A stretch of 64,000 bases of DNA from Candidatus Bathyarchaeia archaeon (GCA_035529595.1 DATKWK010000017.1:29384-93383), one strand, 5' to 3'; shown: positions 1 through 27,822, counted from the first letter of the stretch. Notes: generated from the letters alone by a model not told the origin. Numbers and translations: made by a program.

Positions 1-101
1 TGAACTGTTCCCATAAAGGTCTATCACGTAAATAAGACACTTCCTTTATTGTGGGAGCTTGAGATAAATATCCCTGTAATTCTTCATAAATCGGCCTGAC
101 A
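1..101 (-). CDS. Partial CDS (N-terminus only; continues beyond window start), hypothetical protein
   Basis: Minus-strand ATG at 99..101 (plus-strand 'cat'). The frame stays open to position 1 and reads MKENVRPIYEELQGYLSQAP... No recognisable motif. Confidence 0.3.
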
Positions 102-108
102 TTTTCTT

Positions 109-2505
109 TCATCTACCCGCCCTTTCTTGAATAATTTTTTCGAGTGTCTTAAAGTCTCCTTCATTAACAAGGTGAAATCTCACTTTTCCATCATAAGCTC
201 TTTCTAAAATTGAATCCTCCTTCGTTAAGCCCTGCTTTAATGCCTTTTTCTCTTTTGGTGTTACTTCTTTAAGCTCTGCAAAGACCCAATTTTGGGCAAA
301 ATAGTACCAAACGGCTGTTTTACCGTTAACCTTAATATAGTGGTCTGAGCCAGCTCCCCCTTTGACTACTGCTACTCTGCCATCAACAAAGGTCTCTTTA
401 GTCCAATTAGGTATGCCTCTAACCATCTTTTTTACGAAAGGACTCTTAACCCTCTCGATTATTTCTTTATCCGTTTCAGCGGTACTCTTTTTGACTCCTG
501 TTGCACTAATCATTTTTAGAATAGCTGCTAACCATTCTAAAGCTGCCTCACCTTCTTTTTTAATAAAGGGTGCAATCTCACCTCTACCATGCTTGACGGC
601 ATTGCGGTACTCTTTTAGACTCAGAAATCTTTTTTCCACTTCATATTTTGACCTGAAGATTGATTGAAAAGTGTCCCAGTTCAAAAGAATAATCTTGGAA
701 TAATCCATAATGTCGCAGAAATCTAGCCAATCACGGGGAGAAAGGTCAGTTATTACTTTGGGGGGGTTCTTTTTAAGGTGTTCGCCAACTCTATTTCTAA
801 CAACGCCAACAATATCGCTAGGGATTAATGTTTTCCAATAATTTACATCTTTAGCTATCAGCTTCACGCCAATCAAATCTCTTAGCTGGTTCTCGGTCTT
901 ATCAATTGCCCTGTTAACATCATCGACCACCACCTGACCAATTTTTGACCCTGTAGCAACCGTTATTTCCTCAAGCATTAAAGCGGCCCTGGAAGCCAAA
1001 AAAGAGGTGAAATCACCTTTTTTAATGGAATCGTCATAGCGAATCAAGTGAGTTTTAAGCGTGTCTTCAAAGTCTGGGTTTTCAGAAGCGTAGTCCTCGA
1101 AATATTTACTTGGCTTCTTGTTAGAAATTTCCTTGTTTAATTCGGCTGGTAAGAAGCAAAAATTAGGAAGTGAATGGACCATTACCATCGGGTAATGATT
1201 CTGAATAATGGATTTAGGAAAGATATGGTGTTTCTCTGAGCTGTTGAAATCGGAAAAATAGGCATCACGCAAGGGTAAAAGGGAGTTATTCTTGAAATGT
1301 CTGGGGTTCTTTTTGACAAGCAAACACAAAACACCATTCTTGACGGCTGATTTGCGAGTCATCCTAATTTTCATCAGGGATTCAATGTCTGGATTAAGAG
1401 GATATTTAATAGCTACCTCTTTTCTGTCAGCAATTTTATCCATCAATTTTCTATCCTCGGTCATTAAGGTTAAGGTTGAAGCGGCGTATCTTTCTGAAAA
1501 AGTGGTTTGCCAGAACCATTGTGACAGAAGCTCCACTTGTTTCTGGTCTAGGCTTCTTGCCTTGTTCTTATAAAACAAATAGGCAATCACAGCGATTAAA
1601 CTTCGGTAAGGAAGAAGAAGGGAGTTAACAACGCCAAAATTGCTACAAGCGTAATCTATTGCCAAGCCAAGCGACTCCAGGCAAGTTTTCCAGTAATTTT
1701 TAACATCTTCTACCCGAAGCTGAAGCTGAACAACCCGAGTACAAGAACCCTTAGCAATCAAGGAAAGAGCTTGGATATAAACTTCATTGTGGATTTCGCC
1801 AAACTCTTTGGTTTTGAGTTTCTCGTTTTCTTTTTTAACTGCGACTCTTAAATCAAACTCAGGTGTCCAAGTACTTGCTGAGATTAAATCAAAAAGGTTT
1901 AATTTCTGCCCACCTTGATTGATTCGTTCAAAAATATCACAAACTTCATCCAATTCTTTATCATGAACATCAATGGCAGAAAATGGATAGTTGTTAAATC
2001 GCTGGTAGCATTCATTGAACGCCTTCTTCCGCTCAACGGTTAACCCTTCGTAAACGTCAAACCTGTCATTAGAGAGCAAATCAGAAATAGAAACATATCT
2101 TTGATTATCAGGATTTCGGTCAACAAACACCTTTTCATCCAAATCAAAGCAAATCTTTTTATAATTCCGATTGTAAAGGGTCAATCCCTTGACAGTTACA
2201 TATAGAGAAGTGAGCCTCTGCTGTCCGTCTAAAATAAAAGTTATTTTTTCGTACTTATCAGGCTTGGGAAGATTAAGTTCGGCAATATCTCTGTAGAAGT
2301 CATAATATTTGCGAGGAGCGTCCCAAAAAAAGAAAGAGCCAATCGGATACTCAAGATAAATGCTTTCTAAAAGTTTCATCACTCTAGGCTTGTCCCAAAC
2401 GAACTCTCTTTGAAACTGGGGAATGCGAAGAACACCTTTTTCAATCTCACGAATAATATCCGCCAACTTATAATCACTTTTTATTTTTATCTTTTGTATT
2501 TCCAT
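109..2505 (-). CDS. GmrSD-like type IV restriction-type protein: DUF262 (ParB-like NTPase, DGQQR motif) plus DUF1524 (His-Me finger nuclease, HHIFPKS), with a C-terminal HEPN-like R-x4-H segment
   Basis: Translation carries the ILDGQQRLTSL hallmark of DUF262 in the N-terminal region. A mid-protein SEKHHIFPKSII matches the DUF1524 (D/E)HIxP motif. EYRNAVKHGRGE near residue ~620 matches the HEPN Rx4H signature. The ORF is 798 aa. Confidence 0.8.
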   Translation of the reverse strand: MEIQKIKIKSDYKLADIIREIEKGVLRIPQFQREFVWDKPRVMKLLESIYLEYPIGSFFFWDAPRKYYDFYRDIAELNLPKPDKYEKITFILDGQQRLTSLYVTVKGLTLYNRNYKKICFDLDEKVFVDRNPDNQRYVSISDLLSNDRFDVYEGLTVERKKAFNECYQRFNNYPFSAIDVHDKELDEVCDIFERINQGGQKLNLFDLISASTWTPEFDLRVAVKKENEKLKTKEFGEIHNEVYIQALSLIAKGSCTRVVQLQLRVEDVKNYWKTCLESLGLAIDYACSNFGVVNSLLLPYRSLIAVIAYLFYKNKARSLDQKQVELLSQWFWQTTFSERYAASTLTLMTEDRKLMDKIADRKEVAIKYPLNPDIESLMKIRMTRKSAVKNGVLCLLVKKNPRHFKNNSLLPLRDAYFSDFNSSEKHHIFPKSIIQNHYPMVMVHSLPNFCFLPAELNKEISNKKPSKYFEDYASENPDFEDTLKTHLIRYDDSIKKGDFTSFLASRAALMLEEITVATGSKIGQVVVDDVNRAIDKTENQLRDLIGVKLIAKDVNYWKTLIPSDIVGVVRNRVGEHLKKNPPKVITDLSPRDWLDFCDIMDYSKIILLNWDTFQSIFRSKYEVEKRFLSLKEYRNAVKHGRGEIAPFIKKEGEAALEWLAAILKMISATGVKKSTAETDKEIIERVKSPFVKKMVRGIPNWTKETFVDGRVAVVKGGAGSDHYIKVNGKTAVWYYFAQNWVFAELKEVTPKEKKALKQGLTKEDSILERAYDGKVRFHLVNEGDFKTLEKIIQERAGR

Positions 2506-2570
2506 TTTTATTCTCCAATCATAAACTTCTCGGGTACTCCAAATAAAGACCGATGGTTGATGGTGAAAGT

Positions 2571-5321
2571 TTAATCATTATCACTATTTCTCAATAAATA
2601 TCTTCTTTCTCTTTTAAGAAATGCTTCTTTTCCGCCCTCGAGGACATCACAAATGTGTTCTTTAATACCTTCTTCCTCAATCGCCCCACAGATGATGTTC
2701 TCAGTAACATCATCTTTATCATCATCTTTCAGAACAATCACCAATTCGGCATCGGCAAGAACTACAAGGTTTGGGTCACGAGTACAAATAATCATTTGTC
2801 TTGATTCTTTTTTATCCTTTATAGTAGGAATCAAGCGTTCAATTAAAAATTTCGTATCTATGTGGTCCTCTGGCTGGTCAATAATGAGAGGGCCTCTGCC
2901 TGAACTTAGGATTAACTCTAAAACTGTTCCGCACCTTTCACCAAAAGATAAAGACTCAAGGGGTTTATTTTTGTACTTAATTCTGTTAAGACCTTCAACA
3001 CAAAACTCTTGAAGTCTTAATGACATTTCATCCCTAAGACTGGCTGTTTCTTTTCTACAAAATATCCCATTAAAAAATTTCGACTGCTCGCCCTTGGGTA
3101 ATTTTTCATTCTTTAAACAATCCTTTAATGCCTTAAACAGTTTGTCTCGTGAAGAATACTTGGCAACCAATTGATTCTTAAAGTACTCCACTTGGAATTT
3201 CTCTAATCCTACAATTCTAACTTCTATCTGTTCCTTCCATGCATAATAAGCCTTCGAAAACTGCTCTATTACCCAATTAATCACTTTTTCCATGTCAATC
3301 TCGTAACTAGCACGAATTTCAGAAGAAGAAAACTTTTGATTAAAGGCGTCAACATTCTGCTGGTTAGATTTCTCCCATTTTTGAAAAAGTCTGTTCAACT
3401 TTTTACAACTTTCTTTGTGTTCACCCCTATTTCTTTTACATTGGGTAATTTGTCCCCCCACTTTTTGAAGACTAGAAATAAGTTTTGTCCGCCTTTTTTC
3501 TATCGACTTAACTTCAGCCTCTGAAATATCAATTCCTTGAGAAGCACAATATTGCCTGTAATTCTTTCCAGCTTTAACTAGGTCCTTAGACAATTTCTTG
3601 CACTCTTTAGAGTTAGTAATCTTTTTAAGAACCTGTATTATTTCTTCATCAGTCTTATCAAATCTATCAACTAAATCGGATAATAAATTTAACTTGCCTT
3701 TAAGGCTAGGAATTAATTCGGCAATGTCTTTAGTATCAACAACAAAATATTCTTTTAACTCACTCTTATAGACAGTTAACTTTCCAGACAACCAAGATAG
3801 GCTTTCTTTGAACGAATCAATTTTTTGCTTATTTTGCGAGAGTTCTCGAAAATTATTAAATAGTTTTATAAACTCTTTGGAGTTAAATTTTTTCAGTAAT
3901 AAATCAATCTCTTCTGCCTCCTTTTGAATATCATCTTTCTGTCTTGATAATTGGTAAATTCTCAGATAGTCCTGCCTTTTGTTCTTAATTTCTTTCCTTG
4001 TCTTTTCAATTTCCTCCCATAATTCTTTTAAATTAGCATCTTCAAATTTCTGATAAACTAATGATGAGACTTCATTTTTGTCTCTAGCAATTTTTTCTAC
4101 TTTCCCTTGCGACCAATAGTCAACAGAAATTGCCGTGGCCTTATTATTGGCTTCCTCAATGCCATCTACTTCCTCTTGCAAAGACTTTTTAATCTCATAA
4201 ACATCCTCTCCTGTCTTGACGCTCAATACCACGTTAATACCAGGACACTCTTGCTGAAGCGACTCAATAATCGAAGGCTCTTTGCCTCCAATAACCGTAG
4301 TGGTGTGTTTTCCGTAGACAAAAGAAATAAGTTCAACTAGGGTACTTTTTCCAACACCCCTGGGGCCAATGACTGCAGTTAAGTTAGGGTTAAAAGGAAC
4401 ATGCTCACTTAATTGGCTAAAACAGTATTTATTTTCGGCTTCACTATCCTGTTCGCTCAAAGAAAATTTTGAAATCCGAAAATGAACGTATTGAGGGCAA
4501 TTTTTTCCATACCAAACCCGTTTCTCTGGTTCATAAATAATCTGTTTTAAACCGCTAAAAGTAGGCCTCGCCTTAATCCAACAATATTTTCTTCCAATTT
4601 CGTCAAGAGAATGAGCGTCAGAAGTAACAACGCCCGCCTTTTGCCCGCCCGTTAGCCTTAATACGTCTTCGTGTTTTAAAGACTTTTCTTTTGTCTCAGC
4701 ACTGCTAATTTCGAAGAAATCAACTTCTTTATGAACATTGACCTTTAACTGAGAACCTTTGACTGAGTTTAATGAATCCAGTCCTTTGTGTTTATCATAA
4801 TGTAAATAAATTAAGCCCCCATTATTTTTAATAATTTTATACGCCTCTCGTAAATCAACATACGCATGTTCTAGCCCCTCTTTGAAATACTCGCCATCGG
4901 TCTTTCCTTCCTTTAGCCTCGACTTCCCAAGTTTTATTAGAGCACTTCTACTTATTCCTTCGCCTTTTTTCTCACAAAGAGGAAGTTGGTTTAAAACATT
5001 TTCCTTGATTTCACTGATGTCTATGTCTTCTGGAAACAAAGCCACTGCATGAATCGGAGAATCACCCTTATCTATTCGAAATTCAAATCCAGGCAATATA
5101 GTAATTTCCTCATCGACTGCAAGAATCCTAATTGCATCAACAAGCTCAACCGACCAATGGTCCGTAATAGCAGCTAATTGTATTTTTTCTTGTTTTATTT
5201 TCTCTACTATCTGCCTTGGGGTTATTGCTTTATTTTTATAGTCATAAGAGGCAGGAGTATGAATCTGTAAATCGCACTTTGTCCAAGTGGAACCAATCGT
5301 TCCAGGCTGAGAATCACTCAT
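2571..5321 (-). CDS. PHP-domain (polymerase/histidinol-phosphatase-like) plus ABC/SMC-like ATPase fusion protein; candidate single-gene antiphage system (PPL-like)
   Basis: N-terminus CDLQIHTPASYDY...ITDHWS resembles PHP metal-binding His motifs. Walker A is GPRGVGKST at about residue 320. A long coiled-coil middle is followed by an LSFGER signature-like segment and Walker B/D-loop LIIDQPEDHID near the C-terminus. 916 aa. Confidence 0.75.
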   Translation of the reverse strand: MSDSQPGTIGSTWTKCDLQIHTPASYDYKNKAITPRQIVEKIKQEKIQLAAITDHWSVELVDAIRILAVDEEITILPGFEFRIDKGDSPIHAVALFPEDIDISEIKENVLNQLPLCEKKGEGISRSALIKLGKSRLKEGKTDGEYFKEGLEHAYVDLREAYKIIKNNGGLIYLHYDKHKGLDSLNSVKGSQLKVNVHKEVDFFEISSAETKEKSLKHEDVLRLTGGQKAGVVTSDAHSLDEIGRKYCWIKARPTFSGLKQIIYEPEKRVWYGKNCPQYVHFRISKFSLSEQDSEAENKYCFSQLSEHVPFNPNLTAVIGPRGVGKSTLVELISFVYGKHTTTVIGGKEPSIIESLQQECPGINVVLSVKTGEDVYEIKKSLQEEVDGIEEANNKATAISVDYWSQGKVEKIARDKNEVSSLVYQKFEDANLKELWEEIEKTRKEIKNKRQDYLRIYQLSRQKDDIQKEAEEIDLLLKKFNSKEFIKLFNNFRELSQNKQKIDSFKESLSWLSGKLTVYKSELKEYFVVDTKDIAELIPSLKGKLNLLSDLVDRFDKTDEEIIQVLKKITNSKECKKLSKDLVKAGKNYRQYCASQGIDISEAEVKSIEKRRTKLISSLQKVGGQITQCKRNRGEHKESCKKLNRLFQKWEKSNQQNVDAFNQKFSSSEIRASYEIDMEKVINWVIEQFSKAYYAWKEQIEVRIVGLEKFQVEYFKNQLVAKYSSRDKLFKALKDCLKNEKLPKGEQSKFFNGIFCRKETASLRDEMSLRLQEFCVEGLNRIKYKNKPLESLSFGERCGTVLELILSSGRGPLIIDQPEDHIDTKFLIERLIPTIKDKKESRQMIICTRDPNLVVLADAELVIVLKDDDKDDVTENIICGAIEEEGIKEHICDVLEGGKEAFLKRERRYLLRNSDND

Positions 5322-6475
5322 GAAACTAATTCTCCTTTCATTGCCTTATTAAGCGTGCTTTCAAAAAGTTCATTTAGTAAAGTCTCTTTCATAAAAAGAC
5401 TACTAATGTAATCTAAAAGTTGTTCTGCTTTCACTATTATTTTTTTCTGTTTATCTAACAAAGGTAAGGTTATTTCAATCTCCTTTATCCTATTAGCGTT
5501 GAACTGGGGCTGCCCCGAACCAGTTACCAACTTCCTAGCCTGTTTCCAGTATTTTTCAGTTCTGGTAAACAACCAAATAAACAAGGGTATTGCTAAATCA
5601 GGATTAAATTTAACTCTTATCAGGAATGAAGCAAACACTGATGGTTTATCATAGTCGAATAATAAAAATTTTCCATAAGTTGCACCCGTACGAGCCACAA
5701 GCAAATCGTCATTGCTAAGAACATAGGATTTAGCTGTTCTCTCATTGACTTGCACAAATCTTTTATCATGGTTTCTTAGTTTCCCCGACTCATTAATATC
5801 GGTGATTCTTATTAATCTATAGTTACCTTTGTTCTTGCCTTCAGCTGTTAATCCATACTGAAATTCTGCAATATCACCAAACTTACTAAATTTTGCACTA
5901 TTATTTTGGACGAGCTGGCCAGTTATGAAAGAATCAAATAATTCTTCTGCCTTCTCAATTTCTTGCTGGTTTAGTTCTTGGAGTTTTCGAATCGCATCCA
6001 GTCGCTCAACAATTTTGTGTTGAATCTCGAGAGAAGGAAAAGAAATTTTAATCTTTTTTAGGGCCGTAGTGCTTAATTCTTTAAAAGTGGTTCCATAAGA
6101 TACCCTTTCTAGTCTTCTTTTATTCGCCAACAGCCAATAGGCAAGAAACCATGAGCCTAACTCCTTTTTGGGTGTAATTCCTTTTATGCCTTGGTTGTAG
6201 CCCGAAGCTGTTGAAGTAATCGCTACATTTCCAATTGTTGCTCTAGTCGATAAAAGAATACAATTCTTGTCGACTATTTTGGTATATTTTTTAGCTTCCT
6301 CGCTAATTTGTCTTTCACTGTCTTCTAAAACAGAAACTGTTCCTGAAGTTATTTCGGAAGGAGTAAACCATGGGACGTCGCCATTGAAATATTGAGGCTG
6401 ACTAGTTGGTGGAGTACCTCCGCCGTTGACCTCAACTAAATTGTCCAATTTTTTTGTTTGCCAATTATTTTTCAT
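5318..6475 (-). CDS. hsdS: Type I restriction-modification specificity subunit HsdS (two target-recognition domains)
   Basis: 385 aa with the N-terminal pattern KLDNLVEVNGGGTPPTSQPQYFNGDVPWFTPSEI typical of HsdS TRD1, and a second repeat-like half. It lies in an operon with hsdM/hsdR. The stop overlaps the next gene's start (5318..5321). Confidence 0.8.
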   Translation of the reverse strand: MKNNWQTKKLDNLVEVNGGGTPPTSQPQYFNGDVPWFTPSEITSGTVSVLEDSERQISEEAKKYTKIVDKNCILLSTRATIGNVAITSTASGYNQGIKGITPKKELGSWFLAYWLLANKRRLERVSYGTTFKELSTTALKKIKISFPSLEIQHKIVERLDAIRKLQELNQQEIEKAEELFDSFITGQLVQNNSAKFSKFGDIAEFQYGLTAEGKNKGNYRLIRITDINESGKLRNHDKRFVQVNERTAKSYVLSNDDLLVARTGATYGKFLLFDYDKPSVFASFLIRVKFNPDLAIPLFIWLFTRTEKYWKQARKLVTGSGQPQFNANRIKEIEITLPLLDKQKKIIVKAEQLLDYISSLFMKETLLNELFESTLNKAMKGELVS

Positions 6476-7176
6476 TTCAGTAATCTATATACCTCCGCTA
6501 ATAAAACATCTAAATCATTAGAGAAATCTATTTGGCTATGGCCTGGAAGTACCTCTTTTTTTCTTACTTGTGTATGCAAGAAACTGTCAGCAATCTTTCT
6601 AGAGGAATTTTCCAGGTGCTTCATTTGTTCCCTAAAGCTCTTTGTCCCTCGATAATTATTAGCAATTTCAGAAAAAGACCTAGTATTAAAGATTGGAGGA
6701 ATGTGGTCAAGAATAGACCGCACTACCATGGCCACAGAGTAATAACAATTATTCTCGTAGGCTGTATTCAGCTCCTCACAAAGTCTAATAAGCCTAATTA
6801 AGTCGAAAACATCACTTTTAACACTCTTTAACTCTTTTATCCTAGACTCACTCACATAGGATACGGTTCGTGTTTTGAGAACTTTTTTAGGTAGAACTAA
6901 AAAAGAGTGTAATTTCTTCTTTAAATCTCTCTTAACCGCTAAGGCATCAATTGACCGTCGAATAATATCAATTTTTTCTTCTTCGTTAAGCTCAGAATCT
7001 GCAACTGTCATCACCCAACTATAAGTCAATGCCGACCTTGCAGATGTTATTGCTTCGTTTGGATAATCTTTACACTTTAAATCAGTCAAAGAGTAAAAAA
7101 TACGATTTATCTCATTAATTGTGCTATCGTACTTTATGCCTTCACCAAATTGCGTAGCAAGAAATTTGTAATTCAT
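6472..7176 (-). CDS. Hypothetical helical protein with an R-x4-H (HEPN-like) motif, inserted inside the Type I R-M operon
   Basis: 234-aa ORF whose start overlaps the hsdS start region (6472..6475). It contains VVRSILDHIPP (R-x4-H). There is no TM segment and no other recognisable motif. Confidence 0.5.
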   Translation of the reverse strand: MNYKFLATQFGEGIKYDSTINEINRIFYSLTDLKCKDYPNEAITSARSALTYSWVMTVADSELNEEEKIDIIRRSIDALAVKRDLKKKLHSFLVLPKKVLKTRTVSYVSESRIKELKSVKSDVFDLIRLIRLCEELNTAYENNCYYSVAMVVRSILDHIPPIFNTRSFSEIANNYRGTKSFREQMKHLENSSRKIADSFLHTQVRKKEVLPGHSQIDFSNDLDVLLAEVYRLLK

Positions 7177-7185
7177 ATTAAGGCC

Positions 7186-7896
7186 TTATCTATCCTTTTT
7201 AATAAATTCAAGAAATTTTTCCCCAAATTCAGTCAAAGGTCCGAAAAATGTTCCACCATATCTACCATTTTTGACGGAAATTAAACCATAATTCCCCAGT
7301 CTTGCTAATTTGTCTTCTAAATCAATTTCATCTTCTCTTTTTTGGAGATAACCTGCCTCTTTAACATCTCTAATACTAATGCCCCTGCTTCCATCGACAT
7401 TAATCTTAGCTTCAGGATTCTCTTTTTTTTGTCTCTTAAGGGTGGCCCGAAGAATTCCGTCATATTTTTCATTAAGCCAAGCTAACCTATGTAGCTCATC
7501 AAAAGTAATCGAATTAATCGTCAGAATAATCTTGGAGTGATAATCAAAGGAGGGATAAATATCTTTATGAAGTTGGGAAATATAATTATAGTAGAGTCGT
7601 CTTTTTCTTCTGGATTCTTCCTGCAAAACATTCAGCAAAATTTTATGGAGAATGTCTTTAGCTTTATCGTCTCTTTGGATTAGCTCTAATAACTTTTTGG
7701 CTCCAACTTCATTTTTAACTTCCTTAATCCTGTCACCTCTCCATTTATCAACTAGAGACCAAATCCCTGATGCTGCTGCCGTACCAATGCCAACAAAGGG
7801 AGAAAATACAGAAATTACCGCCCCTGCAACAGGAAGACCTAATTCCTTAACAACATCCTTGGCTTTATCTTTTTTATTCTTGTTATTCTTGCTCAT
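7186..7896 (-). CDS. Hypothetical membrane protein with a Gly-zipper-like single TM segment near the N-terminus, inserted inside the Type I R-M operon
   Basis: 236 aa with a Lys-rich N-terminus followed by LGLPVAGAVISVFSPFVGIGTAAASGIWSLV (GxxxG-rich hydrophobic segment). Its stop overlaps the hsdM start (7893..7896). Confidence 0.5.
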   Translation of the reverse strand: MSKNNKNKKDKAKDVVKELGLPVAGAVISVFSPFVGIGTAAASGIWSLVDKWRGDRIKEVKNEVGAKKLLELIQRDDKAKDILHKILLNVLQEESRRKRRLYYNYISQLHKDIYPSFDYHSKIILTINSITFDELHRLAWLNEKYDGILRATLKRQKKENPEAKINVDGSRGISIRDVKEAGYLQKREDEIDLEDKLARLGNYGLISVKNGRYGGTFFGPLTEFGEKFLEFIKKDR

Positions 7897-9410: not shown

Positions 9411-11629
9411 TGGAATACTCCTTGTTGCAAATCATCAACTACCTGCTTTAAGCCTTCATCTCCAAACACTTTTAAGGCGTACTGTAAACCGCCGTATTGA
9501 GAAATTGGTGGCCTATTGAAGTCAGCAATATCAGCCTTGCTCCCTGCAAGATATTGATTCTTCAGCATTCTTAAAACTCTGGCCTGCTCTGGAGCAAAAT
9601 TCTTTTGAATAATCCAAGCATCGAAGGCCTTGCTGACTCTTTCTTCTTTAGTTGGGAATTTGTGCATTCCAAGGGAAGATTTGATGAAATCTAATAAGTT
9701 GGCAGTTGGTTGGCCATAGGCATCTCTTAAATTGGCTTCATTGAAAAAGTATTCTGGGTGATTTAAAAGTTGGGCTAATTCTTGAAGTTCTTCATCTGTT
9801 ATCTCCTTGCCTTGTTTAACCTTGGCCACAATCTCATTTGAATCAACAAGAGTGCTCACTTCTTCAGCAAACTTATCTTTATACTCTCGAGCATCAACTT
9901 TTTCTCCTTCTGGCCCAAACTCAATAAATTTACGCTCCATCCATTCATCTGGAGCCTGTCCTTTGGGTACAGTTACAAACTCTCTTTTGGGCATCTTCAG
10001 TTCTTCTTCTTGTAGTAAATCTTCTTCCACTTTCTCCTCTTTTAGCTCCCTGGTAGCTGATTCCTTTTGTTCAAATGGGTCATAACCTTCATCGTTAAAA
10101 TATTTAGCATTACCAACGAAGTCATAAATCATAAAAGAAGTTTTACCGATTTCTGGGCAGAGTCGTGAACCCCTACCTCGCATTTGTTGGTAAAAAATTG
10201 GTGAGAGGGTTGGCCGACACATCATCAAATTTTCAATAGCTGGGTAGTCGAAACCTGTGTCTAACATGGCCACCGAAACCGCAATCACGGGCAAAGGTTC
10301 CTTTTTAAAACGTTTAATAGCTCTTTGTGGGTCGAAGGTGTCGGTGGTTATCATCTCAGCATACTTTCCCTTATATTCTGGATAAGCCTGGTTGAAGAAT
10401 CTGGTTAGTTGAGCGGCGTGTTTCTTGGTGACAGCAAATACAATTGTTTTCCTGGGATGGTCGCTTCCTTTCTTTTCTTCTTGCTCTTTGAATTCTTGGA
10501 CAAAGAGCATATTTCTGTCTTCAACTGTAATTACTCTTTCTAAATCTTGCGGCTGATAATCTTCGCCTTGCCATTTAATTCCTTCTAGAGAAATCTTCGA
10601 ACGGGCATGATAAACCTTGTAGCCAGCTAAATAGCCATCATTTATCGCTTGTCTAATGCCGTAAATAAAAGTGGGCTTACCTCGTCTGGTTGATGGGTTC
10701 CAACAGTCAAAAAATTTATAAGTGTTGCGGTCAATAAAATTGGCTGGAGTAGCGGTTAAACCAACATGAATAGCATCAAAATGAAGAAGAAGCGGACGAT
10801 ACATGCTGTAAATTGAACGATGACACTCATCAGTCACTACTAAATCAAAATAGCCACTAGTAAAAGAGTCAACTTGTGATTGAATCGTTGGTAAAGTACC
10901 AATCACTATCTGGCCTTCTTTGCTTCTTTTACCGCCGTATAAAACAATTGAGGGGTATTCAGAAAGATAATCATCAAAAGTTTCCTTGGCTTGGTTGGCA
11001 AGCTCGATTCGGTCGACTAGAAATAAAACTCGCTCAACAAGACCTGCCTGAAATAATCGCTTCATTTGCATGGCAATCACTAGCGTTTTCCCTGTCCCTG
11101 TAGCCATTTCTATTAACATCCGTCGTTTATTTTCTTCTATTCCTTTATCCATTGTTCTTAATGAATCTTTTTGGTAAGGCCTGACAGTGATTTCTTTGCC
11201 TCTAAAAAAGAATTTATCGGGAATGGGAATAGCGGAAAGCGGCTTGCGATATTTTCTTAAAGTGGAAATTCTTTCTAAATCATATCTGGAAAAAAAGGAG
11301 TCAACCAGACGAGCATCTGCCTGAGCGTAATCCCAAAAATAGGTGTCTTCGCCATTAGAAAGGAAAATAAAAGGAGCTTGAAGTTCCTTAGCATAATTCT
11401 CTGCCTGTTCTTTGGCAGAATACGGGTCCTTGTTGAATCTTTTTGTTTCTACGACCGCTAACGACCTTCCTCGAGCGTCCAAAAGAAGATAATCGGCCCT
11501 ACCGTCTTTAGTAGCTTCTTCGGTAGTAACCTGAGTTTTATCTTCAATATCCCAGCCTGCCTCTTTAAGCAAGCGGTCAACAATGATTCTGGAATCCGTC
11601 TCTTTCGAGGCAGATTTAGCATTAGCCAT
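9407..11629 (-). CDS. hsdR: Type I restriction enzyme R subunit HsdR (N-terminal PD-(D/E)xK nuclease plus SF2 helicase/translocase)
   Basis: The N-terminus ADYLLLDARGRSLAVVETKR is a PD-D/ExK-like segment. Helicase motif I is MATGTGKT and motif II is VVTDECHRS. 740 aa, which is on the short side for HsdR. Confidence 0.85.
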   Translation of the reverse strand: MANAKSASKETDSRIIVDRLLKEAGWDIEDKTQVTTEEATKDGRADYLLLDARGRSLAVVETKRFNKDPYSAKEQAENYAKELQAPFIFLSNGEDTYFWDYAQADARLVDSFFSRYDLERISTLRKYRKPLSAIPIPDKFFFRGKEITVRPYQKDSLRTMDKGIEENKRRMLIEMATGTGKTLVIAMQMKRLFQAGLVERVLFLVDRIELANQAKETFDDYLSEYPSIVLYGGKRSKEGQIVIGTLPTIQSQVDSFTSGYFDLVVTDECHRSIYSMYRPLLLHFDAIHVGLTATPANFIDRNTYKFFDCWNPSTRRGKPTFIYGIRQAINDGYLAGYKVYHARSKISLEGIKWQGEDYQPQDLERVITVEDRNMLFVQEFKEQEEKKGSDHPRKTIVFAVTKKHAAQLTRFFNQAYPEYKGKYAEMITTDTFDPQRAIKRFKKEPLPVIAVSVAMLDTGFDYPAIENLMMCRPTLSPIFYQQMRGRGSRLCPEIGKTSFMIYDFVGNAKYFNDEGYDPFEQKESATRELKEEKVEEDLLQEEELKMPKREFVTVPKGQAPDEWMERKFIEFGPEGEKVDAREYKDKFAEEVSTLVDSNEIVAKVKQGKEITDEELQELAQLLNHPEYFFNEANLRDAYGQPTANLLDFIKSSLGMHKFPTKEERVSKAFDAWIIQKNFAPEQARVLRMLKNQYLAGSKADIADFNRPPISQYGGLQYALKVFGDEGLKQVVDDLQQGVFQ

Positions 11630-11643
11630 TCTTTTATTTCTTT

Positions 11644-11838
11644 TTATTTCTTTTGTCTTTCAATATAACTCTCGATGTCTTCGGGCCTGTATCTTCTATC
11701 ACCGACGCCACGCCTGGAGCCAATTCTGACAGCCTTTAAACGGTCTTCGTTATCCAATCGCCTTAGAGTTGCGGGACTAACATTTAAAATGTCAGCTGCT
11801 TGTTTTAAGGTCAACAATTTTCTAATTTTTTTGGTCAT
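11644..11838 (-). CDS. Small HTH DNA-binding protein (excisionase/AlpA-like family); possible regulator or recombination directionality factor
   Basis: 64 aa with LTLKQAADILNVSPATLRRL, typical of excisionase-family HTH. It sits 14 nt upstream of hsdR. Confidence 0.6.
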   Translation of the reverse strand: MTKKIRKLLTLKQAADILNVSPATLRRLDNEDRLKAVRIGSRRGVGDRRYRPEDIESYIERQKK

Positions 11839-11839
11839 A

Positions 11840-12570
11840 GCTAATTGAACTTAATTATATCTTATTACTTACTGTTTTAGAAGTTGAAGATTCCAAAAGT
11901 ATAATTATTATTGTACTTTCATTTTGTACAAAAATATTACTCACCCTGCCTTAAATTTTATCTCAAAATTGATGCATTATGAGGTGAATTTTTCTAGTTG
12001 ACAGCCTCAATTCATTTTCTTAAAATTTAGTTAATCTTGAGTCTTGGTATTTGCCAAGGAGTAACAAGAAATTGTGAAGTTCAACTCAAATTAGGGTTGG
12101 ACTTTTTTTGTTTAAGCAGAAGTCGTAGTGCACCATTGTGTGAGAGGCTAAAGAAGCCAAGGTCTAGTTGTAGGTGAAGTTTAACCCCACTTCACTCTAC
12201 CAACGGGGCCTCACGGGGAGTCGGCAACAAATACGACGTTAAATAAAGGTGTGAGGATGGTTGGCTGTTGACGTGTGACGAAGTCCAAAGTGTGCACGGG
12301 AATGACAACAGAAAAATGTGTCGGGATAAAGAGTTACGCACTATGCTCTCCCACCTTCTAGCTCAATGGAGACTAGTTTGGAGGCGATAGTTGGCTTAAA
12401 CGCTCTGAGAGAAAACAGGTTAAAGCGTTGAAAACATTCTTATTTTCTGTTTCTATGCTCTAAATTCCAAAGTGTGCAGTAAGGGCAACTCTCGGAAGGC
12501 AGTAAACGCTACCGAAATTCAGAAGTAATCTCCAAGTCAATTAATTTGGCACTTTTATGCTCAAATTACT
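11840..12570. ncRNA. Candidate structured non-coding region of unknown class (GC-richer than flanks, no ORF of 60 aa or more, internal hairpins and a repeated 13-nt motif)
   Basis: A ~730-bp gap in a gene-dense genome. Local hairpins include GTGAAGT...ACTTCAC around 12175..12200 and GGGG/CCCC pairs. The motif TCCAAAGTGTGCA occurs twice (~12285 and ~12468). The strand is undetermined. Confidence 0.25.
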
Positions 12571-12792
12571 TTATCTATGAAACAAGTCTTCTACTTTAAC
12601 CTTAAATTTCCTAGATATTCTCATTAAGAGCTTTAAAGATGGGCTCTCTCGACCTTGTTCTATGAAGCCCATATAAACTCTGGAAATACCTAGCTGGTGA
12701 GCTAGTTCTTCTTGGGTTAAATTATTTTGCTTCCTTAACTTTTGCACCTTTTTCCCTAAGGTTCTTAGTGTTTCTTTACTTGTTTTAGGCAT
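12571..12792 (-). CDS. XRE-family helix-turn-helix transcriptional regulator (controller/C-protein-like)
   Basis: 73 aa with LRKQNNLTQEELAHQLGISRVYMGFIEQGRESPSLKLL, a classic XRE HTH. Confidence 0.7.
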   Translation of the reverse strand: MPKTSKETLRTLGKKVQKLRKQNNLTQEELAHQLGISRVYMGFIEQGRESPSLKLLMRISRKFKVKVEDLFHR

Positions 12793-12929
12793 ACATCCAT
12801 ATTGTTGTATGCCGTCGTTTTAAACTCCACTAAGTATAACTAAGCATTTGGCCTTGAAAAAGGCTTGATTTCTTCTCTTAGATATAGTATGATTTCCTAG
12901 AAGATTTAAAATAAAAGAGATAAAACGAA

Positions 12930-13577
12930 ATGAAAAAAATATTTGTAGTTTGCTTCTCTATAATCCTATTAATATTTGCCTCGCAACATTTCACTAAACC
13001 TGCCGAAGCCTTTTCGTTTAGATACTCACGAAACATATTTTTCCCCTATCGACAAGAAGTCCTTAAAATGATTAATAAGGCGATTGAGCCCATACAGGCT
13101 CTAATTGATAGTCTTACCAGTAGGACAGATGATTTAGAAGATAAAGTGGCAGATTTAGAAGAAAGGCTAAAAGGACTGGAAGAAATTGCCCACTGCCCAC
13201 CAGGGATGGTTCCTGAAATCCGTTTTGAGGGTGATTTAGGTCCTCTTAAATGCAGGCTCGTTGATAATCCTCAACCCACGATTGAACCACAACCAACTTC
13301 TAGTCCAGAAGCCTTTCAAGTAAGCTGTGGCGTTCCAGAAGGTTCTAGTAGCTCGAGCGAGTTTACCATTTCTGCCAACAAACCACTCAAATCCTGTCTG
13401 TACACTACCAGTCCGATAGATAACTCTGAGCCAGAAACATCAGTTAGCATAACTCCAAACGATAATATTTGTTCTTTCACAGAAAATAACTGCGACAGAC
13501 AAATATGGGTAGGAATGGAATCATTTGATAACGAAAACCAAGAATGTCTCTACGAAGCGGTTGCATGTAACCCCTAA
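12930..13577 (+). CDS. Secreted hypothetical protein (signal peptide, coiled coil, Cys-rich C-terminal domain)
   Basis: N-terminus MKKIFVVCFSIILLIFASQHFTKPAEA looks like a signal peptide. The heptad-like DDLEDKVADLEERLKGLEE and eight Cys follow. A purine-rich stretch lies upstream of the ATG. Confidence 0.5.
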   Translation: MKKIFVVCFSIILLIFASQHFTKPAEAFSFRYSRNIFFPYRQEVLKMINKAIEPIQALIDSLTSRTDDLEDKVADLEERLKGLEEIAHCPPGMVPEIRFEGDLGPLKCRLVDNPQPTIEPQPTSSPEAFQVSCGVPEGSSSSSEFTISANKPLKSCLYTTSPIDNSEPETSVSITPNDNICSFTENNCDRQIWVGMESFDNENQECLYEAVACNP

Positions 13578-13695
13578 AGAAGAAATAAGTTTCATTTTCC
13601 TTAAAAAAATTATTATCCAAGCTATTAATCTTGAAAATGAAGACTAATAAATATAGAGGTCTGATTAGTGAATTTGCCTGCTAAATAGGAATATT

Positions 13696-13902
13696 TTAAG
13701 AGCTAACGCTTAACAGCTGGTCCAGAACATTGCTCTCCATTTCCTTGAAATTTGGCCTTTTAAGTCTGAGCCACCTCTTTTTACTACCTGGGACAACATA
13801 ATAATCGAGCTCGCTTCGCTTTAAATAACGCCAGATAGTGGTCCGACTTACCCCTTTCTTTTTGGCGTATTCTGATATACCGACAAGTCTAATTTTTGCC
13901 AT
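13696..13902 (-). CDS. Small HTH DNA-binding protein (excisionase-like)
   Basis: 68 aa with YAKKKGVSRTTIWRYLKRSEL, a typical Xis/AlpA-like HTH. Confidence 0.55.
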   Translation of the reverse strand: MAKIRLVGISEYAKKKGVSRTTIWRYLKRSELDYYVVPGSKKRWLRLKRPNFKEMESNVLDQLLSVSS

Positions 13903-14274
13903 AATTTGAAGTTCGATTGATGTTAATTAAACTTATTGTTATTTTACCAGCTAAATACGGAAAATAGCCATTATAAACAGGGTAAGTTTCGAGACAGTTA
14001 GGGCCTATGAGAACTAGCGAACTTTTGTTTGATTGTCTTATTTCTGTAACTTCGGTACCCCCCAGGGCTATTTATTTCAACCCTCTTTGAAGTAGTTTTG
14101 GCACGGTTAAAACACACTATTTGCAAGCCAAAACTTCTTTCTTTTCTAAGTCGATAGAGAAAACTAACTCAACTGGTATCGAAATTGGCATAGTCTGACA
14201 TCTTGACTATTCAGCCTGTTTGTATGAAAATATGTAATTAGGGGTAATTAAATACAATATAAAAGGCTGTCATT

Positions 14275-14649
14275 ATGCTCAATTCAATCTTCAAAGTTTC
14301 TTTAAAAAGTTCCCTTATCACTTTTTTTATAATCCTCACTCCTTTTTTTATTCCCCTCTACTCTTTATTAGTTGTTATCTTTGTTGTCGTTAAACTCATC
14401 AGAATAGCAAACCATCAACTCATTGAAGAACCACGTCGAATAGCAGAGGTCTTGTGTCCAACTGAAGAAATTAATCCCGCCAAAAGACCTCAAAGGACAC
14501 CCGACAAACTCACCTTTTATAAAGACTGTCTGATTGAATCTTTCGTTAAGGAAAAGGCTTACCGAATTTTAACTCCTCAAAGTGCTGATTTAGGCATAAG
14601 TTTTAAAAATTTAAACGAAGCAAAAAGGGAAATAAGTCTTGTTAGATAG
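14275..14649 (+). CDS. Hypothetical small membrane protein
   Basis: 124-aa ORF with the N-terminal hydrophobic stretch LITFFIILTPFFIPLYSLLVVIFVVV. It lies in an AT-rich region. Confidence is low. Confidence 0.3.
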   Translation: MLNSIFKVSLKSSLITFFIILTPFFIPLYSLLVVIFVVVKLIRIANHQLIEEPRRIAEVLCPTEEINPAKRPQRTPDKLTFYKDCLIESFVKEKAYRILTPQSADLGISFKNLNEAKREISLVR

Positions 14650-14983
14650 GGCAAAATTACTATTGCACTTGAGGCTAAAATGTGTTATAAAACATTTAAT
14701 AAGACCTTCGGGTCGACAGAAATAAAAAGAAACAGAAATAAGAGGATAAAGCCATTCGGCGAGGCCTCTTTTTTTATTGGGAGAAAACTAATGAAAGACA
14801 TTGAAGCAAAGCTAAACCAGGCAGCCACCTTATTAGCAGAAGTGATGCTAAGCCAGTTGGGCTTTAATTTCATTCCAAAAGTTAGGATTGAACTTAGTTA
14901 TATTTTCCAGATAAAAATAATCTTGACTGGAAGCCCTTATGAAATTCCGTTTAATTACTACGAGAAACTTAGTTTTACCAGAA

Positions 14984-14989
14984 AGGAGG
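14984..14989 (+). promoter_or_regulatory. Shine-Dalgarno site (AGGAGG) for the serine recombinase gene
   Basis: A perfect AGGAGG sits 6 nt upstream of the ATG at 14996. This supports 14996 as the true start rather than the upstream ATG at 14939. Confidence 0.6.
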
Positions 14990-14995
14990 GATTTA

Positions 14996-16531
14996 ATGAA
15001 CCCATCTACACAGCCTATGCCATCTAAAAAATGCTTGATTTATACTCGTGTCTCGACCGATGAGCAAGTGCGGGAGGGCATGTCTCTTGACGTTCAAAAA
15101 AGAGTTTGTTCTAAATGGGCCAAAGATAATGGCTATCAGATAGTCGGTATTTATACAGACGAGGGCAAGAGTGCCACAACGACCAAGGGCAGACATGGCC
15201 TTGAAGATTTAATTATTCACTGCCAAAAAGAGCACATTGACATCGTACTTGTGCTGGACACGGACCGATTGGCCAGAAACCCATTTAGCCATTATTCAAT
15301 CAAGGAAGAACTAAGAAAGGTTCATACCGAAATTATATCTGTCAGCCAACCAATGATTGATAATTCTCCTGAAGGCAATCTGGTTGATGGCATTATGGCT
15401 AATGTCAACGCTTTCCAGAGCCAATTAACAGGCCGAAAGGTAAGAAAGAGTCTTGAGAAGAAGTGCCAGGACGGCTGGTGGCCAGGATGGGCAAAGTTAG
15501 GCTATTTGAATCACAATAAGGGAACAGCGGACAATCCAGAAAAAATAATCATTGTTGACCCAGAAAGAAGCCCGTTAATTACTTTATTTTTCAAACTTTA
15601 TTCGACAGGCAACTTCTCTATCGACAGTTTAGTTGATTTGATGTACGAAAAGGGCCTGAGGTCCAAAAATGGCAAGAAAGTATCCAGAAGCATTCTTTAT
15701 AATGTCCTCCATGACCCGTTTTATTTTGGCAAGATTGAATTCAAAAGTAGAACCTACCAAGGAAAACATCCTCACCTAACCACTTCTGCCATTTTTAAAA
15801 CTTGTCAAAGAATTTCTAGCCTGCATAATCAAAACGCCTGCCGAAGACGGAAATATCGCTGGTTGCTTAACGGCTTTGCTTATTGCTCGGTTTGCAGGAA
15901 AAGGATTTATGCTGAATGGCACAAGCCAAAGGTCAAGGCTTATTATCATTGTTCCAAGCGAAACGGTGATTGTCGGCAGCCCTATATTGAAATGAATCAT
16001 TTGGAGAAAAAGATAGAATTAGAGTTTAAGAAATTACAACTTTCTCAAGAATTCAGCCAAAGAATCGTTGACAAAGCCAAAGAATTAGTCAAAAAGTCAA
16101 GAGAAAATATTGAAGAAGATAAGCAGGCCCTAAGAAACGCCATCAACCAGCTTGAGATTAAAAGAAATCGGCTTGAAGACGAGCTACTTGACCGCACTAT
16201 CAGCAAAGAGGCCTTTAAACGCAAGCACACTGAGTTAGAAGGCCAGATTAAGAGCTTACAGGAACAAATCCATGATATTGAAACCAACCAGCGAATTGAT
16301 ATTGACGTTATTTCTCGGGTAATGGATATGGCCTCTAATATCTACGAGACCTACAAGAAGTCTAATTTCGATGCTAAGAGAATTTACTTGGGAATCTTCT
16401 TTGAAAAGTTTGAAATCAAAAATAAAAAGGTAGCGAAAGCAATTCCAACGCCACTCTTTGCAAGCCTAATTGAGCACGGCTATTGTAGAGTAACGCCTAA
16501 CTGGCTCCCCGGACTGGACTCGAACCAGTAA
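14996..16531 (+). CDS. Large serine recombinase/integrase (resolvase catalytic domain, recombinase domain and zinc-ribbon domain)
   Basis: N-terminal LIYTRVSTDEQ (catalytic Ser motif), a C-terminal Cys cluster (CSVCRKRIYAEWHK...YYHCSKRNGDC) and a long coiled coil. The last 30 nt overlap the tRNA-Asn 3' end. Confidence 0.85.
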   Translation: MNPSTQPMPSKKCLIYTRVSTDEQVREGMSLDVQKRVCSKWAKDNGYQIVGIYTDEGKSATTTKGRHGLEDLIIHCQKEHIDIVLVLDTDRLARNPFSHYSIKEELRKVHTEIISVSQPMIDNSPEGNLVDGIMANVNAFQSQLTGRKVRKSLEKKCQDGWWPGWAKLGYLNHNKGTADNPEKIIIVDPERSPLITLFFKLYSTGNFSIDSLVDLMYEKGLRSKNGKKVSRSILYNVLHDPFYFGKIEFKSRTYQGKHPHLTTSAIFKTCQRISSLHNQNACRRRKYRWLLNGFAYCSVCRKRIYAEWHKPKVKAYYHCSKRNGDCRQPYIEMNHLEKKIELEFKKLQLSQEFSQRIVDKAKELVKKSRENIEEDKQALRNAINQLEIKRNRLEDELLDRTISKEAFKRKHTELEGQIKSLQEQIHDIETNQRIDIDVISRVMDMASNIYETYKKSNFDAKRIYLGIFFEKFEIKNKKVAKAIPTPLFASLIEHGYCRVTPNWLPGLDSNQ

Positions 16532-16577
16532 CCCTTCGCTTAACAGGCGAATGCTCTGCCAATTGAGCTACCGGGGA
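16502..16577 (-). tRNA. tRNA-Asn (anticodon GTT)
   Basis: Cloverleaf read by hand: acceptor TCCCCGG/CCGGGGA, D-stem GCTC/GAGC, anticodon stem TTCGC/GCGAA with loop CTGTTAA, and T-arm ACTGG-TTCGAGT-CCAGT. CCA is encoded. The 3' end overlaps the recombinase ORF. Confidence 0.8.
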
Positions 16578-16626
16578 ATATTAATGTACTGCACAATTTT
16601 ACCAAACTTGGGAAGTTATTCCAAAT

Positions 16627-17101
16627 TCAAGAAATAGCTATCCTTGCCAAAACTGTTTCGATTTGGCGATAGAGATCTTCGGGAGCAGAATTATTAATCA
16701 ACTGAAAATCAGCGGCCTTAAGACAAACAGTAATATTCCTGCCCTCACTGTATTTATCCCGCTCTTCATTTTTTAAAAAAGCCGGCCAGGTCGTTGGGTC
16801 TCCTGCCCGGTCGCGGGCTATCATTCGCTGAAAACGAAGTCGGGGCTTGGCTGAAACACTCACCAGCCAAAAACCGGGTTGCTCTTTTAAAAATTCGACT
16901 TCCTCAATTCCCCGGATACTATCAATCACCGCTTTTTTTCTTTTGGCAGAGACTATCTTTTGCCAAACTCTCTGGGCCAACACCGTTGGTCCGAGCCGCT
17001 GGCGCAGATCACCGGCCACCCGCTGAAGCGAATCACGGGTAATCGGTTCCTTTGCCGGCGCAAGGCAAACCAACAAAGCCAAGAATTGTTCTGATAGTCA
17101 T
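16627..17101 (-). pseudogene. P-loop NMP-kinase-like gene with an apparent frameshift (possible pseudogene or sequence error)
   Basis: Minus-strand ATG at 17101 encodes MTIRTILGFVGLPCAGKGTDYP* (Walker A GxxxxGKGT) and then hits a stop. The 151-aa ORF 16627..17082 continues in another frame as ...ITRDSLQRVAGDLRQRLG... and starts only with a TTG. Confidence 0.45.
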
Positions 17102-23122: not shown

Positions 23123-23137
23123 AGACTTTAAAAATTT

Positions 23138-24982: not shown

Positions 24983-24987
24983 CCTGT

Positions 24988-27818: not shown

Positions 27819-27822
27819 TAAG

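Follow-up and report, generated by a model that had tools for sequence, protein, structure and literature searches.

A putative serine-recombinase defense island at a tRNA-Asn 3′ end, with its attachment site predicted inside the recombinase reading frame

We analyzed a 64,000-nucleotide stretch of DNA (GCA_035529595.1 DATKWK010000017.1:29384-93383), referred to as the window in the following. Its positions 1 to 16,510, together with the preceding 2.9 kb, very probably represent one 19.4-kb element, inserted by the large serine recombinase (LSR) encoded at its right end, LSR530, at the 3′ end of a tRNA-Asn gene in a bacterium of the Patescibacteria/candidate phyla radiation (CPR). The most fitting description is that of a small, site-specific integrative island whose backbone is conserved and whose cargo slot varies and often serves defense. 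Comparative anatomy of related loci shows the predicted chromosomal attachment site (attB) to be the tRNA 3′ terminal GGAGC(CA), and the predicted attachment site of the element (attP) to lie inside the recombinase's own open reading frame (ORF), in the codons ..N-W-L-P.. (AAC TGG CTC CCC). Two large LSR families of CPR bacteria appear to have such an ORF-embedded attP at a tRNA terminus. A first-pass annotation, made from the sequence alone, had proposed an integrative element with its right junction (attR) at this tRNA; its observations were partly confirmed and its interpretation is supported.

Ends of the element and state of the tRNA-Asn site

The tRNA-Asn(GTT) gene is intact and, as already noticed in the first-pass annotation, overlapped by the 3′ end of the recombinase gene. 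The overlap comprises 30 nt (16502-16531), in which the last LSR530 codons TGG CTC CCC GGA CTG GAC TCG AAC CAG TAA (W-L-P-G-L-D-S-N-Q-stop) run antisense to the acceptor and T arms, TGG CTC CCC being the reverse complement of the tRNA 3′ end ..GGGGAG-CCA. Since the predicted attP sits within the recombinase ORF, this overlap would not be incidental.

The window was matched by exact protein to its source contig of 385 kb (JGI 3300031539 Ga0307380_10000013, on which the record position equals window + 29242; source metagenome SRR8554643) and, again by exact protein, to a 25.5-kb Logan contig; a further 9.9 kb upstream of the window was supplied by locus L001 (window coordinate = 12506 - L001 coordinate). 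Because the attR core CTGGCTCCCC recurs in this upstream DNA as the left junction (attL; Table 1), the element spans -2917 to 16510 (~19.4 kb), and its left end lies 2.9 kb before the window start. There, TGGCTCCCC at -2917 falls within the ORF of an upstream recombinase, LSR584, so that, to its left, the element adjoins another recombinase element instead of the chromosome. The island had been drawn from 1 to 16577; its right end at the tRNA stood, its start at window position 1 did not, and a left att site had rightly been expected further upstream. It had been anticipated as a direct repeat of the tRNA 3′ segment (about 16502-16545), which is absent from the window and the 10 kb upstream: a 28-mer of the tRNA 3′ end, searched with up to 3 mismatches and by blastn-short, has no second copy in the window or ~10 kb upstream, and a general repeat finder returned chance-level pairs only. 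The 10-nt core is the sole repeated part of the tRNA 3′ segment. A repeat of this length instead of a ~40-nt tRNA fragment is expected for the serine class of recombinases.

As a 10-nt core is weak when taken alone, its significance rests on homology with a second locus, L084. This 19-kb Logan contig encodes an LSR (P0002) 75% identical to LSR530 in the same context as ours, with tRNA-Asn (11495-11569, minus strand), a small ORF, rpoD, and dnaG. Its attR reads ..GTTCTAAC TGGCTCCGC GGGTTGGATTCGG.. and its attL, at 2016, ..GTGCCAAC TGGCTCCGC TCCTCGCTGG.. (attL AACTGGCTCCGC). The attL opens an orphan recombinase tail, WLRSSLDIPTIFFDKAIISQIKNQLELLKEVLANRFVSPDYAMKAVSY, which is 75% identical to the 48 residues after W-L-P in the LSR584 ORF (tblastn 2e-21); upstream of it lies a Ham1-like housekeeping gene and no recombinase. 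DNA homology between both loci starts 6 nt before the core (our -2923 to -2017 corresponding to 2011-2902 of L084, 77%; tail, HTH_3 gene, and 160-aa gene), resumes at the HTH_17 gene (11629-11878 to 7193-7443, 73%; blastn), and resumes once more at the 124-aa gene, the LSR, and the tRNA (14315-16578 to 9303-11570, 70%; blastn). Between these backbone blocks, our cargo shows no DNA homology to that of L084, whose 9.5-kb element carries a DpnII-like endonuclease, YaaC, and a radical-SAM protein. On these comparative grounds, a homologous element in the same context confirms both predicted ends of our element, including the proposed attR. A GCTCC sub-core is common to attL and attR in seven of seven delimited relatives, with identical cores of 5-12 nt.

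A metagenome scan with RpoD returned mostly distant phyla and about 12 loci close enough to use. In L088 (RpoD 82% identical), rpoD is followed, after a 425-nt gap, by a tRNA-Asn gene ending ..CCGCGGAGC|AAACAATTTT (GGAGC|AAACAA) with no encoded CCA. The 337 nt past this gene contain no recombinase and instead a nucleotidyltransferase-like ORF, and homology to the window ends at 16504. L098 likewise lacks a recombinase, L094 is occupied by an LSR530-family member, and L095 and L096 hold LSR584-family members. Judging from these loci, the same tRNA-Asn site is empty or apparently filled by different elements in related genomes, and the empty site which the first-pass annotation had suggested looking for is found in L088. 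An intact tRNA gene, a repeat (10 nt) at the far end, and an unoccupied relative, as sought for a genomic island, are therefore all present.

The recombinase reading frame, its tail, and tandem insertion

LSR530 contains the Pfam domains Resolvase (4e-30), Recombinase (8.9e-10), and Zn_ribbon_recom (9.7e-8) and matches the TP901-1 integrase catalytic domain (8.6e-15). Residues Y35, R37, V38, S39, Q43, D109, R110, and R113 are invariant among 53 sequences. Judged by its domains and catalytic residues, it is a bona fide large serine recombinase, and the sole recombinase of the element is thus of the serine and not of the tyrosine type.

All Pfam domains of LSR530 lie upstream of the core. The detached tail comprises ~48 aa (the SSLTIPKIFFDK tail in our contig), where it follows W-L-P of the LSR584 ORF; the HTH_3 gene begins with an ATG that overlaps the stop codon of this tail. 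Compared with the tail of L084, 25 codons are identical, 11 differ synonymously, and 14 non-synonymously. In an AlphaFold2 model of the long-form homologue P0088 (mean predicted local distance difference test score, pLDDT, 83.7), an NWLPSP linker (498-503) is disordered, the tail residues 504-533 are helical (pLDDT ~80-89), and long helices (348-427) are placed between the zinc-ribbon strands as a coiled-coil insertion. Codon pattern and model indirectly support the tail as a probable protein segment. By eye, our tail had been likened to the ‘c2’ class of LSR530 relatives; hidden Markov models (HMMs) of c1+c2 and of c2 gave it no score, and the comparison with L084 was used instead.

The same arrangement recurs across the family. 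At E<=1e-20, we found 263 homologues of LSR530, mostly from Patescibacteria, and 2636 of LSR584. Nearly all LSR530 homologues keep ..RV(T/S)xNWLP near the C-terminus and then diverge, ending in tRNA-antisense residues (GLDSNQ, GQDSNL, REDSNL, GVDSNH), in short ends, or in conserved 35-50-aa tails of several classes. We inspected 81 loci, 80 of them from GTDB species representatives plus L084. In 32, a convergent tRNA gene contains the last 10-63 nt of the LSR ORF, the targets being Asn (17, the closer relatives), His (11), Lys (2), Gly (1), and Trp (1). Locus L046 contains a group I intron (11526-11788, minus strand; Rfam 54.9 bits) in the tRNA-like sequence that the LSR ORF enters, and ARAGORN reports no tRNA there because the intron interrupts it; an intron may likewise conceal the tRNA in some of the 49 loci scored without overlap. 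Group I introns are reported in Patescibacteria tRNA-Asn genes (PMC13011429), with which L046 is consistent.

To look for orphan tails, we built an HMM from 32 long tails and ran it over all loci translated in six frames. Tails lacking a recombinase body, on the LSR strand and upstream of the LSR, were found in at least 12 loci, most strongly in L046 (3675-3812, 8e-15), L041 (3-251, 1e-13), and L042 (2049-2213, 2e-12) and more weakly in L066, L057, L061, L012, L017, L043, L031, L045, and L048; a second tail class has orphan copies in L022 and L046. Several carry an in-frame stop 1-2 codons before the core and are consequently gene fragments rather than genes. In L042, for instance, attL reads ..catat TGGCTCC cctctccagag.. 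(tail) and attR ..caaat TGGCTCC ggtggtaggattcgaacc.. (tRNA-Asn). Short identical cores combined with orphan tails at the far ends place attP within the recombinase ORF, the tail being left at attL. This pattern also bears on the idea that an unrelated resolvase or invertase merely happens to lie beside the tRNA, the low-GC genes having been acquired piecemeal. A repeat of only 10 nt and a modest GC shift would suit such a chance adjacency, yet the 32 ORFs enter convergent tRNAs in the same register, orphan tails sit at far element ends, and the comparisons with L084 and L088 fit integration. Chance adjacency is already contradicted by the family-wide pattern, and we consider it extremely improbable.

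Two loci from non-CPR genomes labelled Melioribacteraceae and Deferribacteres (L029 8051-11599 and L023 7990-11614) each contain two adjacent tail-bearing LSR genes on large chromosomal contigs with no adjoining tRNA. Possibly, the form with a tail came first, and an attP at the tRNA terminus may be peculiar to CPR bacteria.

LSR584 is 29% identical to LSR530, and their C-terminal regions fail to align. Homologues of LSR584 cover only ~90% of it, homology stopping at ..RPIWLP; its tail is absent from every one of 120 homologues, half of which read into tRNAs instead. Since these homologues lack the tail and the L084 orphan tail is 75% identical to it, we assign the tail in the LSR584 ORF to the LSR530 element. 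By this comparison, attL is fused in frame to the unrelated LSR584, with two elements in tandem. The LSR584 element would have taken the tRNA-Asn site first, and the LSR530 element would then have inserted at the same site; repeated use of one site makes chimeric recombinase ORFs. A tandem array is likewise found in L012, where an orphan tail lies at 3880, LSR-A (10001-11500) has a tail fused to it, and LSR-B (18104-19642) runs into tRNA-Asn at 19621. Another array occurs in L077.

Tandem serine- or tyrosine-recombinase elements can co-excise, and the LSR584 and LSR530 segments might accordingly move jointly as a larger composite with its left end beyond window -7990. Both segments are contiguous, and the left end of the LSR584 element was not found within the 9.9 kb upstream, where an HMM of the d-type tail had no match either. 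However, L084 has the LSR530-type unit alone, with the same core and a housekeeping flank, LSR584-type units stand alone beside tRNA-Asn in L095 and L096, and the arrays of L012 and L077 involve other partners. We therefore regard a joint unit as improbable and keep to two separate elements at one site.

The LSR584 element lies directly left of the island (L001 15268-20315, window -7809 to -2762) and encodes a 132-aa zinc-finger-like protein, proteins of 215, 246, and 49 aa, DUF5659, a 238-aa protein, and a divergent HTH_17 protein. A GCTCC at window -7950 was rejected as its left end, as homology with L096 extends further left. Directly after the HTH_17 gene, a LOOT RNA (Rfam RF03000; 87.8 bits, gathering threshold 46.4) was detected at L001 20331-20443 (plus strand; window -7937 to -7825, minus strand). 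Further copies occur in L096 (16504-16613) and L022 (7552-7663), with 78.6 bits each. All three loci have it inside LSR-type elements beside tRNA-Asn, in two of the three at the end distal to the LSR584-type recombinase. About 25 nt past its 3′ end are conserved between our contig and L096 (GGGAGATTGTCAAATC.AAC.AAAAAGCTCCCC). The link of this RNA to the elements may be a lead.

Comparative anatomy shows the outcome of integration at the tRNA 3′ terminus. The LSR body continues for 30 nt into the tRNA (antisense tail GLDSNQ), and the native ~48-aa tail, along with the downstream genes of the 63-aa HTH_3 protein and the 160-aa membrane protein, is displaced to attL. The tRNA stays intact because its last few bases are swapped for identical ones. 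Excision would rebuild a full-length LSR (~570 aa), and, as the tail stop overlaps the HTH_3 ATG, it would create an LSR-tail-HTH_3-160-aa operon across the joint. Which recombinase isoform and which neighbors are expressed would then depend on whether the element is circular or integrated. Going further, the ORF-internal attP might serve as a state switch. Only the circle would yield the enzyme with its tail, transcribed jointly with the HTH_3 and 160-aa genes across the joint, and this form would favor integration; the tail-less integrated isoform would differ in directionality or stability. Directionality control would then be partly cis-encoded through the remodelled ORF, besides a separate recombination directionality factor, and at least two unrelated CPR LSR families would have converged on it. 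We offer this switch as speculation and think it rather unlikely as it stands.

Several points weigh against our reading of an LSR530-inserted element. All sequences compared are metagenome assemblies. The 10-nt core could be a chance match (~0.1 occurrences expected on this strand over the 26 kb upstream), and TGGCTCCCC is found a third time at 58977. The att sites show weak dyad symmetry, at 8-11 of 22 positions, and their crossover dinucleotide is poorly defined, with symmetry giving CT in four elements and TC in ours. L088 shows just 337 nt beyond its tRNA, our tail gets no score from HMMs of the other tail classes, and the integrated LSR530 without its tail may be inactive. No circular contig (terminal repeats in none of 16 whole contigs with family members) and no attP junction were recovered, nor was direct evidence of excision or transfer.

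Mobility of the element at the present day is what we infer. A doubtful but possible alternative is a fixed, decaying remnant, immobilized by its tail-less LSR and the tandem state and now a chromosomal defense island. The missing circular form and attP junction, an integrated LSR without the conserved tail, and the lack of transfer genes all fit such a remnant. Against it, LSR530 has an uninterrupted ORF in which every catalytic residue is invariant, both backbone modules retain 70-77% nucleotide identity to L084 with no frameshifts while the cargo was exchanged, and the site is empty or differently occupied in close relatives, which points to recent turnover.

Backbone, cargo, and genomic surroundings

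The gene content (Table 1) is best explained by a backbone consisting of a left module (tail, HTH_3, and 160-aa genes), the HTH_17 gene, and a right module (124-aa gene and LSR), with a variable cargo slot in between. In our element, the slot holds a GmrSD-like enzyme, Ppl, a type I restriction-modification (R-M) system with two inserted genes, a deaminase, and DUF3795. The GmrSD-like enzyme combines a DUF262 N-domain with a His-Me ‘HHIFP’ motif and an additional C-terminal region, and the Ppl match spans profile positions 154-892 of 894. The genes between hsdM and hsdS have overlapping or near-abutting reading frames and may encode accessory parts of the R-M system. As expected of a defense island, the GmrSD-like/HEC-05 enzyme, Ppl, and a complete type I system (HsdS, HsdM, HsdR) lie side by side. 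The first-pass annotation had recognized this content, including the HTH genes and a secreted protein, which has a signal peptide-like segment. It erred in calling everything minus-strand, since the plus strand encodes LSR530, the 124-aa protein, and the secreted one. The HTH_17 protein is a candidate regulator or directionality factor; as directionality factors, the HTH_17 protein, the HTH_3 protein, and the small ORFs are guesses. The two TCCAAAGTGTGCA copies in the non-coding stretch are 182 nt apart (0.07 expected by chance). This stretch has no Rfam match, is not conserved in any fetched locus, and gives fold z-scores of 0.24 and -0.73.

Table 1. Features of the element and its borders (window coordinates; negative positions lie upstream of the window)
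Feature	Position	Strand	Remarks
LSR584, second large serine recombinase	-4516 to -2762		upstream of window; preceded by small genes (DUF5659, HTH_17, others)
attL core CTGGCTCCCC	-2918 to -2909 (L001 15415-15424, minus strand)		upstream of window
Displaced recombinase tail			next to attL, upstream of window
63-aa HTH_3 protein		+	right of the tail, upstream of window
160-aa membrane protein		+	right of the HTH_3 gene, upstream of window
210-aa gene			upstream of window
DUF3795			upstream of window
dCMP/cytidine deaminase			upstream of window, next to the 183-aa gene; weak match
183-aa cargo gene, 5′ part	1-112	-	crosses window start
GmrSD-like type IV restriction enzyme, cargo	109-2505	-	Pfam GmrSD_N 2.3e-31; PADLOC PDC-M55C 2.5e-46, HEC-05 1e-45
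Ppl-type PHP + SMC-like ATPase defense protein, cargo	2571-5321	-	PADLOC Ppl 4.9e-50; Pfam PHP, SMC_N, AAA_23
HsdS, type I R-M specificity	5318-6475	-	Pfam Methylase_S 9.9e-51; PADLOC Specificity_I 4e-55
Two genes, 234 aa and 236 aa, between hsdM and hsdS	6472-7896	-	no Pfam or PADLOC match
HsdM methyltransferase	7893-9410	-	Pfam N6_Mtase 3.2e-59, HsdM_N; PADLOC MTase_I 1.4e-152
HsdR, EcoEI-like restriction subunit	9407-11629	-	Pfam ResIII 2.2e-37, EcoEI_R_C 4.5e-32; PADLOC REase_I 1e-85
64-aa HTH_17 protein (excisionase/MerR-like), backbone	11644-11838	-	Pfam HTH_17 6.1e-13; kept in L084
Non-coding stretch, 732 bp	11839-12570	.	two exact TCCAAAGTGTGCA copies, 12284-12296 and 12466-12478
73-aa Xre-type HTH_3 regulator	12571-12792	-	Pfam HTH_3 6.5e-14
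215-aa protein	12930-13577	+	N-terminal signal-peptide-like segment
68-aa small basic protein	13696-13902	-	weak HTH similarity
124-aa membrane protein, backbone	14275-14649	+	just upstream of recombinase; L084 counterpart 9643-10017, also 124 aa
LSR530, large serine recombinase, integrated tail-less form	14939-16531	+	longest ORF 530 aa; database start 14996 (511 aa, P0001)
attR core CTGGCTCCCC	16501-16510	+	identical to attL core
tRNA-Asn(GTT)	16502-16577	-	ARAGORN; Rfam 69.8 bits
151-aa gene	16627-17082	-	outside element, between tRNA-Asn and rpoD; no Pfam match
Predicted attP			..CGCCTAAC TGGCTCCCC AGTTCGCTG..
Predicted attP, other stretch given			..GTAGAGTAACGCCTAAC TGGCTCCCC AGTTCGCTGACTATTCC..
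Predicted attB after excision			..CTCAGCGTCCAATC TGGCTCCCC GGACTGGACTCG..

No virion, lysis, relaxase, coupling, or type IV secretion families were found by Pfam among the ORFs of the element, although small ORFs could still encode a novel relaxase. Ten delimited relatives equally contain no capsid, terminase, portal, tail, lysis, or conjugation genes; their 71 larger ORFs include C5 and N6 methyltransferases, DpnII, Vsr, M78 peptidase/HTH pairs, LexA-like proteins, YaaC, Hypoth_Ymh, and an intein-bearing RecA. A prophage or phage satellite at the tRNA, which the serine integrase, the small HTH regulators, and the excisionase-like HTH_17 protein bring to mind by their resemblance to a temperate-phage lysogeny module, is very improbable against this absence of capsid, terminase, portal, tail, and lysis genes. 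A search of IMG/VR (2.9 million contigs) also speaks against it, with a single relative above 31% identity.

The first-pass annotation had described a switch in composition at the tRNA, and we found one by both measures that it had suggested. GC content is 37.6% in the element and 42.5% in 16511-64000 (1-kb bins, Mann-Whitney p=1.4e-6; the lowest 19.4-kb flank window has 40.4%), and the tetranucleotide L1 distance between element and flank is 0.243, the maximum among flank segments being 0.157. The shift is real, if modest. Low-GC patches (0.325-0.349) occur outside the island as well, at 23000-27000, with methyltransferases, NUDIX, GNAT, EamA, cupin, and HAD genes and no recombinase; low GC by itself is hence no marker of mobile DNA here.

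Just beyond tRNA-Asn, rpoD and dnaG are found as annotated before, the full order being the 151-aa gene, rpoD, dnaG, efp (EF-P), and an EpmA-like gene. The 151-aa gene has a partial PADLOC dCTPase match (6.3e-14, profile positions 206-331 of 630), and L084 has a small ORF (114 aa) in the same place. Six tRNA genes (four Ser, two Arg) and a transfer-messenger RNA (tmRNA) cluster at 27188-32774, ~10 kb right of tRNA-Asn, a synteny kept in many relatives (L005, L013, L022, L082, L093, and L121). NCBI gives ‘Candidatus Bathyarchaeia archaeon’ as the name of proteins identical to P0001 and P0121. The contig has bacterial features (tmRNA at 32385-32774, rpoD, dnaG, efp) and is most closely related to Microgenomates-type Patescibacteria. 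The metagenome-assembled genome looks mis-binned or mis-labelled. Many of the GTDB relatives are titled ‘uncultured Gammaproteobacteria’.

Comparison with known integration systems

LSR530 shares its domains (resolvase, recombinase, and zinc ribbon with a coiled-coil insert) with the phiC31, Bxb1, A118, and TP901-1 integrases and with the Ccr recombinases of SCCmec. Serine integrases likewise use short att sites with a core of few identical bases and no long direct repeats. SCCmec inserts at the 3′ end of rlmH, which stays functional, and forms tandem arrays at the same site, as here. Unlike these integrases and Ccr, our element targets a tRNA 3′ end, has its predicted attP core in the recombinase ORF, and would change the C-terminus of the enzyme with the integration state. 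An intragenic attP or recombination event altering a C-terminus or an operon by state is familiar from the integration-dependent immunity of mycobacteriophages (attP in the repressor gene) and from the circularization-dependent transcription of Tn916; in our case, in contrast to both, the remodelled gene is the recombinase itself. A large LSR survey mentions tRNA nowhere (PMC10083194), and tRNA targets are usually ascribed to tyrosine integrases (PMC4383910). The families described here would thereby widen the known target repertoire of LSRs to tRNA genes, and exact attP/attB pairs become available as candidate new orthogonal integrases. They also account for chimeric recombinase ORFs in tandem arrays, which are misleading to automated annotation and att-site prediction.

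Tyrosine-integrase islands of the Islander/TIGER type resemble our element in the intact tRNA at one end, the neighboring integrase, the atypical accessory or defense cargo, and the empty site in relatives. They differ in the enzyme class and in displacing a tRNA fragment of 20-50 nt, compared with 5-12 nt at the 3′ terminus for the serine enzymes; moreover, the integrase here converges on the tRNA and overlaps it. Prochlorococcus tycheposons are similar as small, cargo-bearing, site-specific elements at tRNA genes, forming tandem arrays in a streamlined genome without conjugation. They belong to another phylum and use mostly tyrosine recombinases, 27 of 937 having a large serine recombinase (bioRxiv 10.1101/2020.12.28.424599), and they are not reported to have an attP embedded in an ORF. 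In Patescibacteria, a genomic-island study that includes a type I R-M island makes no mention of integrase, recombinase, or tRNA (PMC12455944). Our analysis supplies an integration mechanism for such islands, namely, large serine-recombinase families probably dedicated to tRNA 3′ ends. The literature we searched, with incomplete coverage that makes an earlier description possible, contained no account of LSR integration at CPR tRNA genes or of an LSR ORF spanning attP.

A further parallel is given by the SSV-type ‘suicidal’ tyrosine integrases of archaeal viruses and plasmids, where att also lies inside the integrase gene, integration partitions this gene, and a compact module targets a tRNA. 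Intragenic-att ‘suicidal’ tyrosine integrases have been described as exclusive to archaea (PMC8371274). Tail fragments at attL in at least 12 loci, L084 and the contig analyzed here included, indicate an intragenic att in our case as well, though neither a tyrosine enzyme nor split domains are involved. While the SSV-type enzyme itself is split, only a ~48-aa post-domain tail is detached here, with catalytic and DNA-binding domains staying in one ORF, and the host is a bacterium. The arrangement would thus represent a bacterial serine-recombinase counterpart of the archaeal intragenic-att system.

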